DNA from: a virus
DNA length: 64,000 nucleotides
Strand: one strand, 5' to 3'
Virus record (IMG/VR): IMGVR_UViG_3300044981_000021
Span: 1 to 64,000 of that record
Of the stretch, positions 6,269 through 58,947 are shown piece by piece; the stretch's first letter is position 1; each line of letters opens with the position of its first letter. Position numbers and translations under genes: made by a program. The notes below the pieces were generated by a model, which saw nothing but the letters and a program-made list of their open reading frames with translations, ran no database searches and was not told where the DNA came from.

Positions 6269-7887
6269 CTATGAGATGGACGCTTCCGCTTTAATTAGTC
6301 TAAAGCGGGGGTGTAACGCCGCACTCTGTGGAACACGCCATTTATTGTTGCTCGCTTTCGCGGAGTCAGTCATTTCTGCTGACTTCTTACGGTTTGCTGT
6401 TCCCGTAAGATCGGACTATCGCATCGCCTTTCGGCGTCTTCTCGCTTAGTCTCTCACGGTGCTTTCGCTTCCGCCTTGTTCCCGTCGCAGGGTTCAAGTC
6501 AATCAGAGAAGATTTTACTGCCACACTTAACTTGTAAAAATGGCAGCGTACTTGAAATTATCTTAAGTTATTTGTTATCAATGCTTTACGTGCATTGAGC
6601 TAGATCATTTCTGTCTAGCTCTGCATGTCGCCATGCAGAACGGACTATCTCTTCACCCTCGCGGGTGCTGCCTACATAGTCTCTACACGTTCCGATTTTG
6701 CATCGGCTTCGCTCGGGATTGTCCCTGTGGGAGTTTCCCCGAATTCAAGCAGTTATCGCAGCCCAATTTCTTGAGTGCGGCCCTATTTTCAGTAAGGCAC
6801 AACTTGCGCCTACAACGCGGGCTGGGTCGGCCACTGATGGCTCCCAGTTCCGCACGATCAACTGATAATTCCGCTGTTCCGGGATTTCAGTTGCGCCAAG
6901 CGACACAGAGAAAACGGCATCCTGTCCAACAACATAGGTGCCATAGCCGGTCTTGGTACCGCTTGGGAAGTTGGCGAAAGTGCTAGCCGTAGTCGTTTCA
7001 ATGAAACGTGCTCCGGCGACATCAATGACACGGTATCCTTGGACTCCGCGCATCAATTCTTCGCTTCCTTCTTTGTGGTACTTCAGGATATCAATCACGC
7101 CACCCGCAGTATTATCGTTCAAACAATCTGTTACCCCGCATTTCTGCGTGGCTACGGCGTTTCCGCGTAGCTCTGCATGTCGCCATGCAGTTCGGACTGG
7201 CTCTTGGCTTTTGGCCTCTCCTGTACAGTCTCTACACATTCCAACTTGCGTTGGCTTAGCTCGGTTTTTACTCGATGAGTGGTTAACCGAATTAGGGAGA
7301 TTACGACCCCGTGAAAGGTCGAACGCTGCGAAGGGGTGAATAATCCCGGCAAACAAGCCATCCGTCTGTGGTCTAACGTCTGCGCCACGAAGGCTCATTA
7401 CGGCCTGGCGGGTCAACGAAGCAGAAAGAAATTCGTTGTCCGTGCAGGAAATAACGATGGTGGTATCGGCGGTAGCCTCAGCTTCAAACTCGGTACGGGC
7501 CAATGTGTTTGCTGTAAGAGCAGCACGGTAGCCCATCTCGGCAGCAGTATTTTCTACGATGGGATCAATTGCTGTTTCGACCAAGATATCCGAGAAGGAG
7601 GCGAAGTCGAAATACTGGTTAGCGGCGACGTTCCTTACGGAAGTCGTAGGGTTAATCCCGGTTCCAACGGTACCTTCTGTGCCCGGCGTGGTGTTTGCAG
7701 CGAAAAGATCGTAACCATAGAGTTGAATTACTCGGCCATTACGGTCTGGAAGTTTACGGCGGCTGGTGACGGCCACAAAGGGCAAATTAGCTTTCAAGTT
7801 TTCTACGGCCACCCGGTCGTAGTAAATACTTGCAAGATGGGTAAGCCCTGCTGTGGTAGTTAAAACACTGGCTGGTTGATAGCTCAA
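6269..7887 (-). CDS. major capsid protein (N4-gp56 type), spliced: exons 7887-7316, 7123-6795, 6561-6540, 6338-6269 (330 aa)
   Basis: Capsid-like motifs (LPDRNGR, FSDILVETAIDP, IIHP, RFIETT, GQDA, DP). Removing three group I introns joins an open frame ending GASCAYNFKYAAMRVPQSAALHPRFRLIKAEASIS*. TTG start after AGGTG; lies downstream of the scaffold gene. Confidence 0.88.
6339..6539 (-). mobile_element. group I intron 3 of capsid gene (201 nt, no ORF)
   Basis: P1 CTGCCAT/GTGGCAG with U.G at the 5' splice site; P7 GAGAGACTA...ATAGTCC; terminal G. Confidence 0.85.
6562..6794 (-). mobile_element. group I intron 2 of capsid gene (233 nt, no ORF)
   Basis: P1 GCCTTA/TAGGGC with U.G; P7 GTAGAGACTA...AAGAGATAGTCC; P9 CTGCATGGCGACATGCAG; terminal G; removal restores the frame. 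Confidence 0.88.
7124..7315 (-). mobile_element. group I intron 1 of capsid gene (192 nt, in frame, stop-free)
   Basis: P1 CGACCT/GGGTCG with U.G; P7 GTAGAGACTG...CCAGTCC; P9 identical to intron 2. Splice could alternatively be 7120-7314. Confidence 0.82.
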
Positions 7888-52207: not shown

Positions 52208-52282
52208 TGGGAGCAGGTACCGGATTTGCACCGGGTCTAAGCGTTATGAGCGCTTCGTATTGTCCTGCGCTACTAACCTGCT
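52208..52282 (-). tRNA. tRNA-CAT (Met; initiator/elongator/Ile2 identity unresolved)
   Basis: Loop CTCATAA, CCA. Confidence 0.75.
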
Positions 52283-53477: not shown

Positions 53478-53552
53478 TGGTCGGGGTAGCTGATTCTGCC
53501 ACAGCAACCCCTCGGTCCCAGGCCGAGTGCTCTGCTTTTGAGCTATACCCCG
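53478..53552 (-). tRNA. tRNA-Pro(TGG), C33, atypical T arm
   Basis: Loop CCTGGGA, CCA. Confidence 0.8.
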
Positions 53553-53557
53553 AAATT

Positions 53558-53633
53558 TGGTGGGACGGGCCAGAATCGGACTGGCTACCACATGGGCTTC
53601 AGCCATGCACTCTACCGGCGAGTTCCACGTCCC
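53558..53633 (-). tRNA. tRNA-Phe(GAA)
   Basis: Loop CTGAAGC, CCA. Confidence 0.8.
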
Positions 53634-53687
53634 AAAATATTTTAGTGCGCTTGATAAAGTTTACGCAACCACGTCATAATAACACTT

Positions 53688-54227
53688 ATGAAGATAGCCA
53701 TCCATCATGGTAAACGCCGCAAACTTTATGAAACAAATTGCCAACACTGCAAGATATCGTTTTATACGCCAAAACATAAACTAGACAAACAGTTGTCAAA
53801 GTATTGCTCCTTGCCGTGTTTCCACGCGGCCTCACGAACGGCAACAATAAAACCGTGCGCCATATGCGAAAAACAAATCACGAGAACTCTAACGGCCTTG
53901 TCGCGATGCAAAAGTGGCCTATTTTTCTGCTCACGTAAATGTAAATCCATAGGCCAAAGATTTGAAAATACAACCATGGCCGCCTGCCATCCTGCGCATT
54001 ACAAGGATGGTTCTTCGGCCTACGGTAGAATTGCGATTCGCCACCACGGTAATCACTGCAATCGTTGTGGCTACAAAGAACATATTGAAATACTCCGCAC
54101 TCACCATAAAGACAGAAATAGCGAAAACAACTTGCCGGATAACCTTGAGCGCTTATGCCCAAATTGTCACGAAACTGAACATTTTTTAGCGGGCGATGGT
54201 GTTTATACTGGACACAAACGCCACTAG
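53688..54227 (+). CDS. HNH endonuclease with Zn-finger repeats, inverted within tRNA array
   Basis: CxxC/YCS/FCS repeats; HHKDRN..NN...NLERLCPNCH. Confidence 0.85.
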   Translation: MKIAIHHGKRRKLYETNCQHCKISFYTPKHKLDKQLSKYCSLPCFHAASRTATIKPCAICEKQITRTLTALSRCKSGLFFCSRKCKSIGQRFENTTMAACHPAHYKDGSSAYGRIAIRHHGNHCNRCGYKEHIEILRTHHKDRNSENNLPDNLERLCPNCHETEHFLAGDGVYTGHKRH

Positions 54228-54243
54228 CTCACTGCTCAAAATT

Positions 54244-54318
54244 TGGTGGAGGCGCGGAGAGTCGAACTCCGGATACTTGGTTGCAGGCCAAGTGTGTTCC
54301 CGCTAGCACTACGCCCCC
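54244..54318 (-). tRNA. tRNA-Ala(TGC), C33
   Basis: Loop CCTGCAA, G3.U70 pair, CCA. Confidence 0.88.
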
Positions 54319-54320
54319 AT

Positions 54321-54396
54321 TGGGGTATACGAGGAGGGTCGAACTCCCTAAAGACTGTTCCACAGACAGTCGCCGCACCGTTTGGCTTCGCATACC
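54321..54396 (-). tRNA. tRNA-His(GTG)
   Basis: Loop CTGTGGA, G-1:C73, CCA. Confidence 0.88.
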
Positions 54397-54402
54397 ATAA
54401 CT

Positions 54403-54477
54403 TGGAGCTGAACGTCAGGCTTCAACTGACATCTCCGAATTCACAAGATTCGTGTTCTGGTTTTGAACTAGTTCAGC
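54403..54477 (-). tRNA. tRNA-Thr(TGT), G37
   Basis: Loop CTTGTGA, CCA. Confidence 0.8.
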
Positions 54478-55173
54478 AATTTCTCTAAATTCTCTTGTCC
54501 GTCTTTTCTTTCGCCTAGAAGCACTTGCTTGTTTATTTCGTGATCGAAACGTGGGCGTCAAGGCGTGGCAATTAGGGCATAGCAATTTCAGGTTTTCGTC
54601 CTTATTGTTGTCGGCGTCTCCGTTGATATGTTCTATTTCTAGGGGTATTGGTTTTTGCAGCCACTCGGTCAAGCCGCAACTTTCGCACCGATACCCACGA
54701 GTTCTAAATAAATATCCACGTAATGCATGACTAGTCCTAGCCGTTTCGGGAGAAGTGGTTAGACAATAAATCCGCATTCCGTAACACGAATTACAGAATT
54801 TCCTATGCGTCGAGCACGGCGTTCCACAATGTTCACACTGTCCGGACGTGAGTGCTCGCTTGCGGCGATGTTTTAAGTAACACGCCCGACTACACGACCG
54901 CTGCTTTCGCTTCTCGTATGACATCTTTTCGCCACAATAAATACAACGCTTATTAGCAGCTTTTTCTCTAGCCGCCAAGGAAATCCCAACTCTAAATGCA
55001 GTCAATTTGTCTTTGGCTGCCAACCATCCGATGCGCCCAACATCTTCCCTCGACATTATCGGCTGTTCCCGTGGATCGTTTGTGTATATTCTTCGTGTTG
55101 TTTTTAAGGTGCGATCCCGATTCTTGTAATACCACCTGCGACGAGCCGCACGCCTTTTATCTTGGTTGCGCAT
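54415..55173 (-). CDS. HNH endonuclease (3' end overlaps tRNA-Thr)
   Basis: CESCG..EW...PLEIEHINGDADNN..ENLKLLCPNCHALT. Confidence 0.85.
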   Translation of the reverse strand: MRNQDKRRAARRRWYYKNRDRTLKTTRRIYTNDPREQPIMSREDVGRIGWLAAKDKLTAFRVGISLAAREKAANKRCIYCGEKMSYEKRKQRSCSRACYLKHRRKRALTSGQCEHCGTPCSTHRKFCNSCYGMRIYCLTTSPETARTSHALRGYLFRTRGYRCESCGLTEWLQKPIPLEIEHINGDADNNKDENLKLLCPNCHALTPTFRSRNKQASASRRKKRRTREFREIAELVQNQNTNLVNSEMSVEA

Positions 55174-55181
55174 ATAAATGT

Positions 55182-55255
55182 TGGAGCCAAGAATACGAAT
55201 CGGACGTATGCTTCGGTCGTACCAGGACCGCGTACTGCCACTATACGATCAAGGC
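55182..55255 (-). tRNA. tRNA-Thr(GGT)
   Basis: Loop CTGGTAC, CCA; two acceptor-stem mismatches. Confidence 0.78.
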
Positions 55256-55257
55256 TC

Positions 55258-55332
55258 TGGAGCCGAGACGGCGAATCGAGCGCCGATAACGAGTTTACGA
55301 ATCTCGCATTCTTCCACTTGAATTATCCCGGC
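55258..55332 (-). tRNA. tRNA-Thr(CGT)
   Basis: Loop TTCGTAA, CCA. Confidence 0.82.
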
Positions 55333-55338
55333 CAAACT

Positions 55339-55413
55339 TGGACTGCCGTGAGCGAATCGGACGCTCGTATAAGGTTTTGCAGACCTCAGCCTAAACCACT
55401 CGGCCAACGGCAG
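55339..55413 (-). tRNA. tRNA-Cys(GCA)
   Basis: Loop CTGCAAA, U73, CCA. Confidence 0.88.
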
Positions 55414-55419
55414 TAAAAT

Positions 55420-55520
55420 CTAGGTGTACGGTCCAAGAATCGCCGCGTTCCCGAATCGAACGGACCAACGCCACTGCTGCCTTGCAAGCGACCAGCGCCT
55501 TGTTGCGCACATACACCTAG
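55420..55520 (-). ncRNA. candidate tRNA-like ncRNA (Y RNA/YrlA-like?)
   Basis: 9-bp terminal stem CTAGGTGTA/TACACCTAG, internal T-loop CCG-TTCGATT-CGG, no CCA or anticodon arm. Confidence 0.45.
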
Positions 55521-55524
55521 AACT

Positions 55525-55598
55525 TGGAGCGGGATGCCGTAATCGAAACGGCGTCTGGAGTTTGGAAGACTCCGGCCTTGCCACTAGACGAATCCCGC
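55525..55598 (-). tRNA. tRNA-Gly(TCC)
   Basis: Loop CTTCCAA, U73, CCA. Confidence 0.9.
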
Positions 55599-55844
55599 TT
55601 ACTCAACGCATACACCGTTCATGTTTGTGGCGGTGCATTCTAAACAAAATTCTACCGCATGTTTAACGCATGGATACTGCTTCCAGCCATGCCTAGCCAT
55701 GTAATGATCCCAATGGCTAGCGACCCAATAGCGGGGTCGCGAACTGGCACCAGCGCCGTGAGTCGGACACGGTACATCTGTTTTGGAGACAGATCGAGCA
55801 CCCTTTTCGTCTTCGCTGGCAAAAATCTTCTTGAACAACTTCAT
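55599..55844 (-). CDS. small hypothetical protein in tRNA array
   Basis: AAGGA RBS; fills the gap between tRNAs. Confidence 0.45.
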   Translation of the reverse strand: MKLFKKIFASEDEKGARSVSKTDVPCPTHGAGASSRPRYWVASHWDHYMARHGWKQYPCVKHAVEFCLECTATNMNGVCVE

Positions 55845-55867
55845 TAAACGAACTTCCTTTCGTAATC

Positions 55868-55946
55868 TGGCGGTCGCAGCGGAATTTGAATCCGCGATCT
55901 GTTCCGTGACAGGGAACTGGGGACGGCCTGACTCCCCTATGCGACC
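55868..55946 (-). tRNA. tRNA-Asp(GTC)
   Basis: Loop CTGTCAC, G73, CCA. Confidence 0.88.
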
Positions 55947-56133
55947 GAATCTTTACAATGCGTACAGATGCATCCCCTGCCATGCAATTTAGAGATGCAC
56001 TTACTGCACCAAAGTTGCGCCCAACCACCACAAAGTTTCTCGCCAATCACGTGCTCCTTTGCGTCCATGACGGTCATAACTGCCCCGCTGCACCTGTGGC
56101 AAAACCCGATATGTTTCACGTGCGACATAAAAA

Positions 56134-56207
56134 TGGCCCCGAGTAGTTGAATCGAACAACTGTTGGCTGATCCAGAGTCAGCAGTCTTGCCACTAAACGA
56201 ACTCGGA
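56134..56207 (-). tRNA. tRNA-Gln(CTG)
   Basis: Loop CTCTGGA, CCA. Confidence 0.88.
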
Positions 56208-56212
56208 AATCT

Positions 56213-56246
56213 TGGAGCCGGGAGTATTTTAATGAGCTATCCCGGC
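56213..56246 (-). pseudogene. 34-nt tRNA remnant/minihelix GCCGGGA-TAGCTCATTAAAATAC-TCCCGGC-T-CCA
   Basis: Perfect 7-bp acceptor stem, TAGCTCA D-arm start and CCA; anticodon and T arms absent. Confidence 0.7.
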
Positions 56247-56308
56247 GCGCTCACTCGCGGAGCGTTGTCTGAAAAGGCGATCAACCCTCCAGTCGCAACG
56301 ACGCAAAA

Positions 56309-56382
56309 TGGAAGGGAGTCTGAGAATCGGACTCAGGTCTGATGATCCAAAGTCATCGGCATTGCCATTATGCGAACTCCCT
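56309..56382 (-). tRNA. tRNA-Gln(TTG)
   Basis: Loop CTTTGGA, CCA. Confidence 0.88.
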
Positions 56383-56718
56383 AACTCTTCAACGGAATTG
56401 CGCGTACGCATCTCGCGCAAATCACAAAACTTGAATCTACATCTTTTTCTAGTTTGCGCCGCGCCTCGCGACATTCTTCCACTAGGGCACGATGGTCTGA
56501 TAGCCCCATGCGGCAGTAATCTATCGTCCCGGGCATTACAATCGCGCCTAGAAGTTCATGCTTCATAAATCCTTAACTCAAATGGCCCAAAGCGGTAACT
56601 TGTGTACGGGCTATATCCCCACATAAGCGTCCCGTTCATGCGTAACGTCTTGCCAAAACTCCATGCATCCCAATATGCGTGCCACGTTACGAGTTTGGAG
56701 CCGATAGTCATAAATCCT

Positions 56719-56793
56719 TGGTAGGGCCAACGGAAGTCGAATCCGTATTCACGCCTTGAAAGAGCGTTTACCTAGCCGTTAGTAGATGGCCCC
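56719..56793 (-). tRNA. tRNA-Glu(TTC)
   Basis: Loop CTTTCAA, CCA. Confidence 0.85.
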
Positions 56794-56799
56794 AAAACT

Positions 56800-57144
56800 T
56801 TATACGGTCGCAGAATTGGCTATCACGGCCTCCGCGTATTCCACTAAGGGGCCATAACGCCTGCTATATCTCTTGTTTTTGCTTTGCTCCTTTGGCGTTG
56901 CCCAACGAACATTGCCACGTTCGTAATGACCGTTATTGTTTATCCTTTCTAGTGTTGAACCCTCCGGCCTCGGGCCTAATTCTTACATGAATTCGCCAAA
57001 CGAAACAAATCTAAATTCTATCCCCCTGCCGCCGTAGTACCTGAAATCTTCGCAATTACTATTCATGCAACGGTATCGCGCATGGTCGAAAGATTTATAT
57101 TCCCGCTTAAATTGTTTCGTTAAGCCACTTCCCGAAAATCTCAC
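56800..57144 (-). pseudogene. HNH endonuclease with in-frame TAA (56983-56985)
   Basis: RC...YYGGRGI...FGEFM*ELGPRPEG.TLERINNNGHYERGNVRWAT; AGGAG RBS. Confidence 0.8.
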
Positions 57145-57156
57145 CGTTAATCTCCT

Positions 57157-57193
57157 AAAAAACGTTTAGCCCCGCATTGTTTTTCGGGGCTAA
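57157..57193 (-). terminator. attenuator terminator hairpin after leader 2
   Basis: TTAGCCCCG/CGGGGCTAA stem then ACGTTTTTT. Confidence 0.7.
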
Positions 57194-57199
57194 TTGAAC

Positions 57200-57212
57200 T
57201 ACGTTAAATGTA
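57200..57212. repeat. 13-bp palindrome TACGTTAAATGTA
   Basis: Family member, inside attenuator 2. Confidence 0.85.
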
Positions 57213-57226
57213 CTTTCCCCGATTGT

Positions 57227-57298
57227 TTATGGCGTACCTTCCCCCGCCTGCCATTGGGCTGGTGTCGGGAAGCAATCGGCATGAAATTGAACATTCAT
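57227..57298 (-). CDS. leader peptide 2 MNVQFHADCFPTPAQWQAGEGTP (codon sensor for tRNA block 2)
   Basis: 19 of codons 4-23 specify amino acids of the downstream tRNAs; promoter upstream, terminator downstream. Confidence 0.78.
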   Translation of the reverse strand: MNVQFHADCFPTPAQWQAGEGTP

Positions 57299-57312
57299 TG
57301 GTTAATGAAACA

Positions 57313-57342
57313 AGCCTAAAGCATGTCTGCTTGTTCTGTCAA
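57313..57342 (-). promoter_or_regulatory. promoter for block 2 (TTGACA-18-TAGGCT)
   Basis: Consensus match 14 nt before the leader ATG. Confidence 0.6.
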
Positions 57343-57350
57343 GAAAAAAG

Positions 57351-57427
57351 TGGAAGGCCGGATCGGACTTGAACCGACAACCTCAAGATTCGGAATCTTG
57401 CGCGAGTTCCCTTTTCGCTTCCGGCCC
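57351..57427 (-). tRNA. tRNA-Arg(CCG)
   Basis: Loop TTCCGAA, CCA. Confidence 0.85.
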
Positions 57428-57430
57428 AAA

Positions 57431-57507
57431 TGGTCCTAGCGACAGGATTCAAACCTGCATTCAACTGTTTAGGAAACAGTGCCGTTGTTCAGTTACGGAA
57501 CGCTAGG
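57431..57507 (-). tRNA. tRNA-Arg(CCT)
   Basis: Loop TTCCTAA, CCA. Confidence 0.85.
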
Positions 57508-57512
57508 AAAAT

Positions 57513-57811
57513 CGGCCACAAGTCAAACTGCAAACTTTCGCTAGCTACTTCGTCCTTCTGCGCTGGGCCACTCACGACGGTTAAGCTCTATCTATCCCAG
57601 CCTTCGGTCGGCTCTTTCCTCCGATTAGGGGCGTCATCTTCCAGACTTTTTGCCAACTTCGTTGGTTCCACTAGAACCATTACTGGATTGCATCTAACTT
57701 CGCCAACGCGACACTAGATCGACTTTCGGGAGCGGGTTAGATACCCGTTGCTTGGCCAAGCATCCCCTCGGCTAGTCGTCCAACCGGCAAGCGGCAGTTT
57801 TTTCGTGGCCG
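57513..57811 (-). ncRNA. candidate ~300-nt structured ncRNA in tRNA array
   Basis: Closing stems CGGCCAC/GTGGCCG and AAACTGC/GCAGTTT; many internal hairpins; no sense-strand ORF in the track. Confidence 0.6.
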
Positions 57812-57833
57812 AAATAAATATAACACGGGAAAA

Positions 57834-57911
57834 TGGTGCAGGATAGTGGACTCGAACCACTCGCCTCGGCTTTCGTAGAACCGCGCTCTAGTCCTGATGA
57901 GCTAATCCTGC
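57834..57911 (-). tRNA. tRNA-Arg(ACG)
   Basis: Loop CTACGAA, CCA. Confidence 0.9.
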
Positions 57912-58844: not shown

Positions 58845-58875
58845 CAGGAAAGGAGGATGCAATGAAAATGAACTC

Positions 58876-58947
58876 TTATCCCGAACGCGCCCGCACGACT
58901 CGCATTCTAATGCGATTTCGCTTTTCGCGTTTAGGTATCAAGCTCAT
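58876..58947 (-). CDS. leader peptide 1 MSLIPKREKRNRIRMRVVRARSG (codon sensor for tRNA block 1)
   Basis: 14 of codons 6-21 are K/R/N/I/M/V; ATG 6 nt after the -10 box (leaderless); terminator follows. Confidence 0.78.
   Translation of the reverse strand: MSLIPKREKRNRIRMRVVRARSG

Follow-up and report, generated by a model that had tools for sequence, protein, structure and literature searches.

The spacer ahead of the second block of tRNA genes in this soil phage appears to hold a multivalent ribosome-mediated (leader-peptide) transcription attenuator that heads the second tRNA operon. We put the probability of this reading at about 0.72. It draws on sequence features, statistics, fold predictions, and conservation, from which we infer promoter use, translation of the leader open reading frame (ORF), and conditional read-through. 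The phage would probably make the tRNAs of this block only when ribosomes read the corresponding codons slowly.

Organization of the tRNA array

The analyzed window (64 kb) is the first part of a complete 100,880-bp (100.9-kb) soil phage record with direct terminal repeats. An array of ∼30 tRNA genes occupies the minus strand between ∼58.8 and 50.9 kb and falls into three blocks, each headed by a short leader ORF (Table 1). ARAGORN at default settings called 25 tRNA genes, to which Rfam and relaxed ARAGORN added Leu-TAA, Tyr, Ser-TGA, Phe, and Pro. Interspersed in the array are five endonuclease genes, four of the HNH type and one of the PD-(D/E)XK type, and two HNH genes interrupt block 2. 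The unit of leader 2 fills the 206-nt spacer downstream of the last tRNA of block 1. Its sequence was identical in the DNA runs X2 and X3, with no variation at leader 2. Elsewhere in the window, Rfam reported a group I intron at 6621-6783 (minus strand, 68 bits).

Table 1. Positions of the tRNA blocks, leaders, and attenuator elements in the window
Feature	Position	Strand	Description
Leader 1	58947-58876	minus	23 codons, CCAATGA start; followed by a 12-bp terminator; predicted ribosome-dependent switch
Block 1 tRNAs	58793 to 57351	minus	Asn, Met, Ile, Val, Ile, Lys (2), Arg (4)
-35-like box, TTGACA	57337-57342	minus	directly past the T-run following tRNA-Arg(CCG); same relative place in G1 and G2
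Putative -10-like box, TAGGCT	57313-57318	minus	weak (3/6); 18 nt past the -35 box, 14 nt before the ATG
Leader 2 ORF	57227-57298	minus	23 codons plus TAA; ATG at 57298, stop TAA at 57229-57227; start context CCAATGA
Segment 1, CCGATTG	57273-57279	minus	inside codons 7 to 9; CGATTG invariant in three phages
Segment 2, CAATCGGGG	57217-57225	minus	begins 1 nt past the stop; pairs with segment 1 or, via TCGGGG, with segment 3
13-bp palindrome copy	57200-57212	minus	in the loop of helix 2:3
Segment 3	57184-57193	minus	terminator 5' arm (57193-57185) plus first loop base; pairs in 2:3
Segment 4, terminator 3' arm	57166-57174	minus	9-bp G+C-rich stem, 10-nt loop
Terminator T-run	57157-57162	minus	six T; follows ACG, 3 nt beyond the stem
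HNH-type homing endonuclease gene, broken	56801-57144	minus	in-frame TAA at 56985-56983; between the terminator and tRNA-Glu(TTC)
Block 2 tRNAs (presumed regulated genes)	53481-56793	minus	Glu, Gln (2), Asp, Gly, Cys, Thr (3), His, Ala, Phe, Pro
Leader 3	51943-51872	minus	23 codons, CCAATGA start; ends 8 nt before tRNA-Leu; without terminator
Block 3 tRNAs	51863 to 50907	minus	Leu, Ser (2), Tyr, Leu (2); all class II tRNAs

A search with the portal protein led to two complete relatives, G1 (103,362 bp, 82% identity) and G2 (102,319 bp, 69% identity), whose tRNA arrays follow the same order as that of this phage. Other routes added nothing to this pair. A DNA search of a phage collection returned tRNA-sized matches only and no close relative, the window index held no look-alike stretch, and exact-pattern scans of IMG/VR with the terminator, a piece of leader 1, and the palindrome plus flank gave nothing new. 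The start-context pattern produced 13 hits in IMG/VR that had no tRNAs behind them and were discarded as chance matches. Synteny via the neighboring peptidase gene yielded 16 relatives, and all of them lack a tRNA array at this position.

Leaders 1 and 3 are conserved in both G1 and G2. At leader 1, both relatives keep the ORF and the terminator though the three terminator sequences are unrelated. Leader 3 lacks a terminator here and in G1, and its stop codon lies 6 to 9 nt from tRNA-Leu. One soil DNA run contained, on a low-depth contig, a ∼90%-alike variant of leader 1 (58868-58935) that differs codon by codon: codon 14 is changed at all three bases (Arg to His) and codon 5 at bases 1 and 3 (Pro to Ser), with one further, synonymous change at a third codon position.

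Several weaker elements were seen in the array. Relaxed ARAGORN alone, without Rfam support, gave two weak tRNA-like calls on the minus strand, Trp-CCA at 55745-55820 and a second Cys-GCA at 55441-55517; G1 and G2 carry good tRNA-Trp and tRNA-Gly(GCC) genes in these slots, and the two elements may be decayed or divergent tRNAs. Leader 2 includes a Trp codon and a GGT codon. Upstream of leader 3, another weak tRNA-like element with the anticodon CAT (52208-52278, minus strand; Rfam E = 0.036) has similar calls at the equivalent relative place in G1 and G2.

Within block 1, the ∼290-nt spacer between tRNA-Arg(ACG) and tRNA-Arg(CCT) (57515-57802, minus strand) was matched over its full length and with zero differences by RNA contigs of two separate soil metatranscriptome studies. 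One of these contigs has a depth of 38 and enters sequencing adapter at 57802, and a third RNA contig resembles a relative with its middle part replaced. This spacer matched no Rfam family, and it is probably a stable noncoding RNA released from the tRNA precursor. The public RNA contigs otherwise cover parts of block 1, and none extends over leader 2, which, for assembled contigs, counts neither for nor against its expression.

Behind the leader 2 terminator lies a broken HNH gene, both halves of which match PHROG 3377 (profile positions 12 to 43 and 58 to 99). Its start, AGGAG-8 nt-GTG, begins immediately past the T-run, and 364 nt of the broken gene separate the terminator from the first block 2 tRNA. 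No HNH gene follows the terminator in G1 or G2. In that position, G1 gave no more than a weak tRNA-Glu(CTC) call, and G2 has an ORF of ∼82 codons and then tRNA-Glu(CTC). Since the HNH gene is absent from the relatives and broken by a stop codon here, we regard it as a later insertion, which may have removed a tRNA-Glu(CTC).

Codon content of the leader reading frames

The composition of the leader 2 ORF mirrors the tRNA genes that follow it. Nineteen of its 22 residues (20 of 22 when Trp is counted) belong to the amino acid set of block 2, and all 10 amino acids of that set are present. Among 2,802 stop-free 22-codon ORF tails drawn from all six frames of the whole genome, leader 2 ranked second for the block 2 set, and the ORFs heading blocks 1 and 3 ranked joint first and first for their own sets. 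At the level of codons, 12 of the 13 block 2 tRNAs find a cognate codon in leader 2, Thr-GGT alone being missed; one other tail among the 2,802 equalled this match. As in a leader-peptide attenuator, these putative regulatory codons would report on the product of the downstream genes.

The same result emerged when the blocks were not specified beforehand. All 121 minus-strand ORF tails of the array were scored by how well they matched the k tRNAs downstream, with k running over every value, and the top three tails were the three ORFs heading the three blocks. For leader 2, the best k was exactly 13, that is, the tRNAs up to the next leader. The P value for leader 2 was ∼0.002 when every genomic tail was set at equivalent positions and 0.0003 with random sequence. 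Dinucleotide shuffles of the leader 2 ORF itself also gave P = 0.0003; because the match survived this shuffling, base composition is not its explanation.

The three leaders share further properties. All are 23 codons long and start in the heptamer CCAATGA, and of the 16 genomic copies of this heptamer only these three open 23-codon ORFs. Each leader in all three phages was enriched for its own block only (P = 0.0003 to 0.005), and the leaders were depleted for the amino acids of the other blocks in nine of nine cases across the three phages. In G2, leader 2 has a cognate codon for 14 of the 15 called block 2 tRNAs (P = 0.0004). Under a stricter score, maximized over k downstream tRNAs, the leader 2 P values were 0.06 in G1 and 0.03 in G2, in part because tRNA-Phe was not found in either array. 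The same method detected no significant leader in the control arrays of two unrelated cultured phages, RSP15 and YB07, and the design is therefore not universal among phage arrays.

Predicted switch and its conservation

A sigma-70-like promoter, TTGACA-18-TAGGCT, probably lies just upstream of the leader 2 ORF. The consensus promoter scan did not list the TAGGCT box, which aligns with TAGTAT in G1; the arrangement in G2 is TTGACA-17-CATACT-6-ATG. These spacings suggest that the leader mRNA is leaderless in G2 and has a 5' untranslated region (UTR) of ∼7 nt in this phage. A leaderless start was also considered here, but the candidate -10 box TTTCAT, which would lie 6 nt ahead of the ATG, lacks a usable -35 box, and TTGACA-18-TAGGCT was preferred. 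The leader 2 ORF has no Shine-Dalgarno sequence.

The preliminary description had proposed a four-segment attenuator with a T-run hairpin and an internal 13-bp palindrome, and all of these elements were found where it had placed them, read on the minus strand. The TCGGGG of segment 2 (57222-57217) is the exact complement of CCCCGA (57189-57184). An intrinsic terminator, its T-run offset by 3 nt, stands between the leader ORF and the genes presumed to be controlled; a simple scan had missed it because of its 10-nt loop and because the T-run starts 3 nt after the stem. The predicted antiterminator, helix 2:3, would exclude the terminator, and the anti-antiterminator, helix 1:2, has its segment 1 inside the ORF and the stop codon beside segment 2. 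A fold of this phage that extends the base of the terminator, pairing ACGT of the palindrome with the ACGT before the T-run, is not kept in G1 and was dropped. Rfam searches over 56300-57900 returned only tRNAs, plus two chance long noncoding RNA hits at E ≥ 2, and no T-box or other curated family.

Predicted energies were -24.1 kcal/mol for the extended 1:2 hairpin, -9.3 kcal/mol for 2:3, and -14.4 kcal/mol for 3:4, relative values similar to those known for the trp attenuator. The 211-nt stretch folded at -58.9 kcal/mol, compared with -47.7 ± 4.0 kcal/mol for shuffled versions (z = -2.8; 0 of 200 shuffles as stable), and its minimum free energy (MFE) structure holds 1:2 and 3:4. By itself, the nascent region shows ordinary stability (-30.5 versus -28.4 ± 3.4 kcal/mol). 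Complements of 7 and 6 bp are each unremarkable in ∼190 nt, and helix 2:3 has only 6 bp and closes a 24-nt loop. When the terminator was kept fixed and the 105 nt upstream were dinucleotide shuffled, 6 to 36 of 1,500 sequences (0.4 to 2.4%) reproduced switch-like behavior, defined as a terminator arm that stays unpaired in the absence of a ribosome but pairs with a stop-proximal partner once codons 7 to 15 are masked. A perfect complement of at least 6 nt to the terminator arm fell within 9 nt of the stop codon in ∼3% of shuffles. Segment 2 is the sole complement of at least 6 nt to the terminator arm in the leader of each of the three phages, and in each the longest such complement sits at the stop codon, a placement with a chance of 3 to 5% per genome. 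Taken alone, the modeled RNA structure is suggestive but not compelling. Since it is only moderately unusual, the codon content of the ORF and the conservation in relatives bear most of the weight.

Folding with a masked ribosome gave the pattern that the attenuator model predicts. In this phage, helix 2:3 formed with A-site codons 2 to 15, and the terminator arm was released with the ribosome on the stop codon. With a 28-nt footprint at A-site codons 6 to 14, the nascent RNA folded into 2:3 in all three phages, and a ribosome on the stop codon likewise released the arm in all three. The footprint-constrained folding check named in the preliminary description thus came out as its model predicts, and its central claim, that a stalled ribosome would free 2:3 whereas absent or complete translation would lead to termination, was supported by every in silico test we ran, namely, masked folds and the conservation of helices, ORF, and stop position. 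With the ribosome at A-site codons 16 to 21, 1:2 re-formed in the masked folds; the late codons (Gly, Glu, Thr, and Pro) may therefore escape classical sensing. Ribosome-free nascent RNA at equilibrium already favors 2:3 (79% here and more in G1), so termination without translation would depend on folding order, with 1:2 forming first. The ribosome-free and stalled states are not told apart by base-pair probabilities in the nascent RNA (0.59 versus 0.69), only by the MFE structures and the folding-order argument.

Both relatives keep the TTGACA box, the short ORF in the 5' leader, the stop codon beside segment 2, and the terminator, ahead of tRNA-Glu. The ORFs are at the same place and of the same kind of composition, with 24 codons in G1 and 28 in G2, and the anchor codons His, Asp-Cys, and Trp-Gln remain in frame. 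The leader 2 peptides have largely diverged yet still lie within the amino acid set of the block, as expected from selection on codon content rather than on the peptide. In G1, protein genes spanning ∼2.7 kb lie between block 1 and the unit, which stays with block 2, directly ahead of its first Glu tRNA. G1 shares the start context, the segment 1 core, TCGGGG right after the stop codon, and the palindrome; its terminator stem differs in sequence. The G2 unit, like the one here, comes after tRNA-Arg(CCG); its G-rich segment 2 overlaps the last two codons, and its terminator has 10 bp. Across the phages, the stop codon falls between 6 nt before and 5 nt after the G-run of segment 2.

Helices 1:2, 2:3, and 3:4 are all kept in both relatives, 1:2 in a shifted register in G2, and the full-length MFE structure consists of 1:2 and 3:4 in all three phages. 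The terminator hairpins have predicted energies of -15.4 kcal/mol in G1 and -18.4 kcal/mol in G2, where the T-run is weak. Helix 2:3 comprises 6 bp here, 8 bp in G1, and 7 bp in G2. Compensatory changes occur in 2:3 and 3:4; they come from three related sequences only and are few and not independent. The outer pair of 2:3 is U-A here and in G1 and G-C in G2. In 3:4, one pair runs from G-C to U-A to G-C, and another changes from A-U (G1) to C-G (G2). A base of segment 3 that is changed in G2 is accompanied by matching changes in both of its partners, segments 2 and 4. We counted pairs by anchoring on the G- and C-runs because the MAFFT alignment A1 is off by one column at segment 2 of G2 and misplaces segment 4 of G1.

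In mechanistic terms, a transcript started at the putative promoter would be translated by a ribosome through 23 codons that sample Glu, Gln, Asp, Gly, Cys, Thr, His, Ala, Phe, Pro, and perhaps Trp. Under fast decoding, the ribosome would reach the stop codon and cover segment 2, the 9-bp terminator would form, and transcription would end at the T-run. If no ribosome were loaded, segment 1 would hold segment 2, and the terminator would again form. A ribosome lingering at about codons 2 to 15 would hide segment 1, leaving segment 2 to pair with the 5' arm of the terminator and block the hairpin. RNA polymerase would then read into block 2, crossing the decayed HNH insert, and the outcome would be a supply-on-demand loop for tRNAs.

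The palindrome is best considered separately from this switch. The sequence TACRTTNAAYGTA has 19 exact copies in the genome, including the attenuator copy; those in the window lie at 229, 5600, 18525, 22717, 23351, 37797, 44960, 50605, 57200, and 63599. A search allowing up to 2 mismatches gave 22 hits against 1.6 expected. Eight or nine copies lie within 50 nt of a gene start, ∼3 times the expected number, and several are just inside coding regions, at codons 5 to 9. G1 has 12 copies, one of them at the same attenuator place, and G2 has none anywhere, in the attenuator or the rest of its genome; the palindrome is therefore not part of the core switch. Variation in one half-site is independent of the other, as would fit a dimeric DNA-binding protein better than an RNA hairpin. 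The set looks like operators of a lineage-specific DNA-binding regulator, and the palindrome would be a lineage-specific add-on layered atop the attenuator. The further suggestion that a protein bound there acts as a roadblock is unsupported.

Alternative readings and relation to known systems

Other explanations of the locus were weighed against these data. The ORF might be a translated sensor of decoding speed whose output is not the choice between 2:3 and 3:4 but Rho access, RNase processing of the tRNA precursor, or transcript stability, the hairpin then being a fixed partial terminator or processing signal. Leader 3, which shares the codon logic and lacks a terminator here (G0) and in G1, fits such a scheme, as do the equilibrium ensembles of leader 2, which give no clean switch. 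We nevertheless consider it unlikely, given that complementarity between segment 2 and the terminator arm is found in all three phages, where one pair changes in compensatory fashion from U-A to G-C, that the stop codon always abuts segment 2, and that leader 1 likewise combines an ORF with a terminator and a predicted switch. A hairpin that simply terminates transcription constitutively, or insulates one tRNA transcription unit from the next, with the ORF and the alternative pairings as chance features, would account for complements that are individually unremarkable, for a nascent region of ordinary stability, and for an ORF without a Shine-Dalgarno sequence. Such a terminator would not explain a codon match with P values of ∼0.0003 to 0.002 under three null models, its recurrence for three leaders in three phages while the control phages give nothing, or the conservation of ORF, stop position, and helices at 69% portal identity; this explanation is already disfavored, and we hold it to be very improbable.

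Conservation of the ORF could also reflect the function of an encoded micropeptide rather than codon sensing, and a motif, Phe/His-x-Asp-Cys ... Pro ... Trp-Gln ... Glu, does recur in all three homologues. Most positions have changed while staying within the amino acid set of the block, however, the invariant Asp-Cys codons coincide with segment 1, and three unrelated leaders each mirror their own block, which leaves a peptide function with only a slight chance of being the explanation. Finally, the terminator, perhaps together with the palindrome, might serve to restrain the homing endonuclease gene, whose ribosome-binding site (AGGAG-8 nt-GTG) follows right past the T-run. A terminator upstream of the homing endonuclease gene mobE has reportedly been found in phage Aeh1, and the ORF here is a homing endonuclease relative. 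Yet G1 and G2 have the same leader and terminator without an HNH gene, and the gene here is a broken newcomer; on this comparison of genomes, restraint of the endonuclease appears already largely refuted, and we give it next to no credence. The leader-peptide attenuator thus remains our preferred reading.

Attenuators with more than one regulatory amino acid are known from the thr (Thr and Ile) and ilvGMEDA (Ile, Leu, and Val) leaders, alongside the trp, his, leu, and phe attenuators, and the thr and ilvGMEDA leaders are the closest relatives of the leader 2 element. The element resembles the enterobacterial amino acid attenuators in its predicted translated leader with regulatory codons, its alternative 1:2, 2:3, and 3:4 helices, its intrinsic terminator, and a stop codon placed so that the ribosome can cover segment 2. 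The term "classical," applied to it in the preliminary description, calls for two reservations: leader 2 would control phage tRNA genes instead of biosynthetic enzymes, and it samples ∼11 amino acids one to three times each, whereas the enterobacterial leaders repeat one to three. It also differs from them in having no Shine-Dalgarno sequence, in an mRNA whose 5' UTR may be very short or absent, and in the palindromic DNA motif in its 2:3 loop. What follows leader 2 is not a set of amino acid biosynthesis or synthetase genes but the broken HNH gene and 13 tRNA genes, and we therefore do not file the element under a classical operon family.

Two other systems likewise use conditional termination to make translation-apparatus genes respond to the state of the tRNA pool, as is predicted here. 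The pheM leader of pheST senses one amino acid and controls a synthetase, and T-boxes bind uncharged tRNA without an ORF. Unlike a T-box, the leader 2 unit has an ORF and no Rfam match; unlike pheM, it would control tRNA genes. To our knowledge, leader-peptide attenuation has been described for amino acid operons and a few synthetase genes and not for tRNA genes, and full-text literature searches returned no description of leader-peptide attenuation of tRNA genes. The nearest published case to a leader-gated tRNA operon is the silent trn operon of Anabaena 7120, a long tRNA array induced under translational stress (PMC8421152). Like the array here, it consists of auxiliary tRNA genes interspersed with homing endonucleases, and it is activated under impaired translation. 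The words "attenuat," "leader," and "terminator" are absent from the main text of that paper, and control of the array is attributed to the transcriptional repressor TrcR (PMC10272220).

Beyond the single locus, we are inclined to think, with somewhat less confidence than for leader 2 itself, that large phages sort their tRNA genes by isotype into operons, each gated by a many-codon leader attenuator that senses how fast host ribosomes decode precisely the codons served by the tRNAs that follow. Sets of tRNAs would then be supplied on demand, with the palindrome as a second, protein-mediated input in one sublineage. Such a demand might arise when host tRNAs decay after host shut-off or when anticodon nucleases cut them. 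If the leader 2 unit works as proposed, it would offer a natural "many-codon" sensor, suitable for reuse in reporting decoding speed. Phage tRNA arrays would then not be passive codon usage patches but regulated operons that carry their own sensors of the tRNA pool, which would bear on why phages carry tRNAs and on how they meet host defenses that cleave tRNA.
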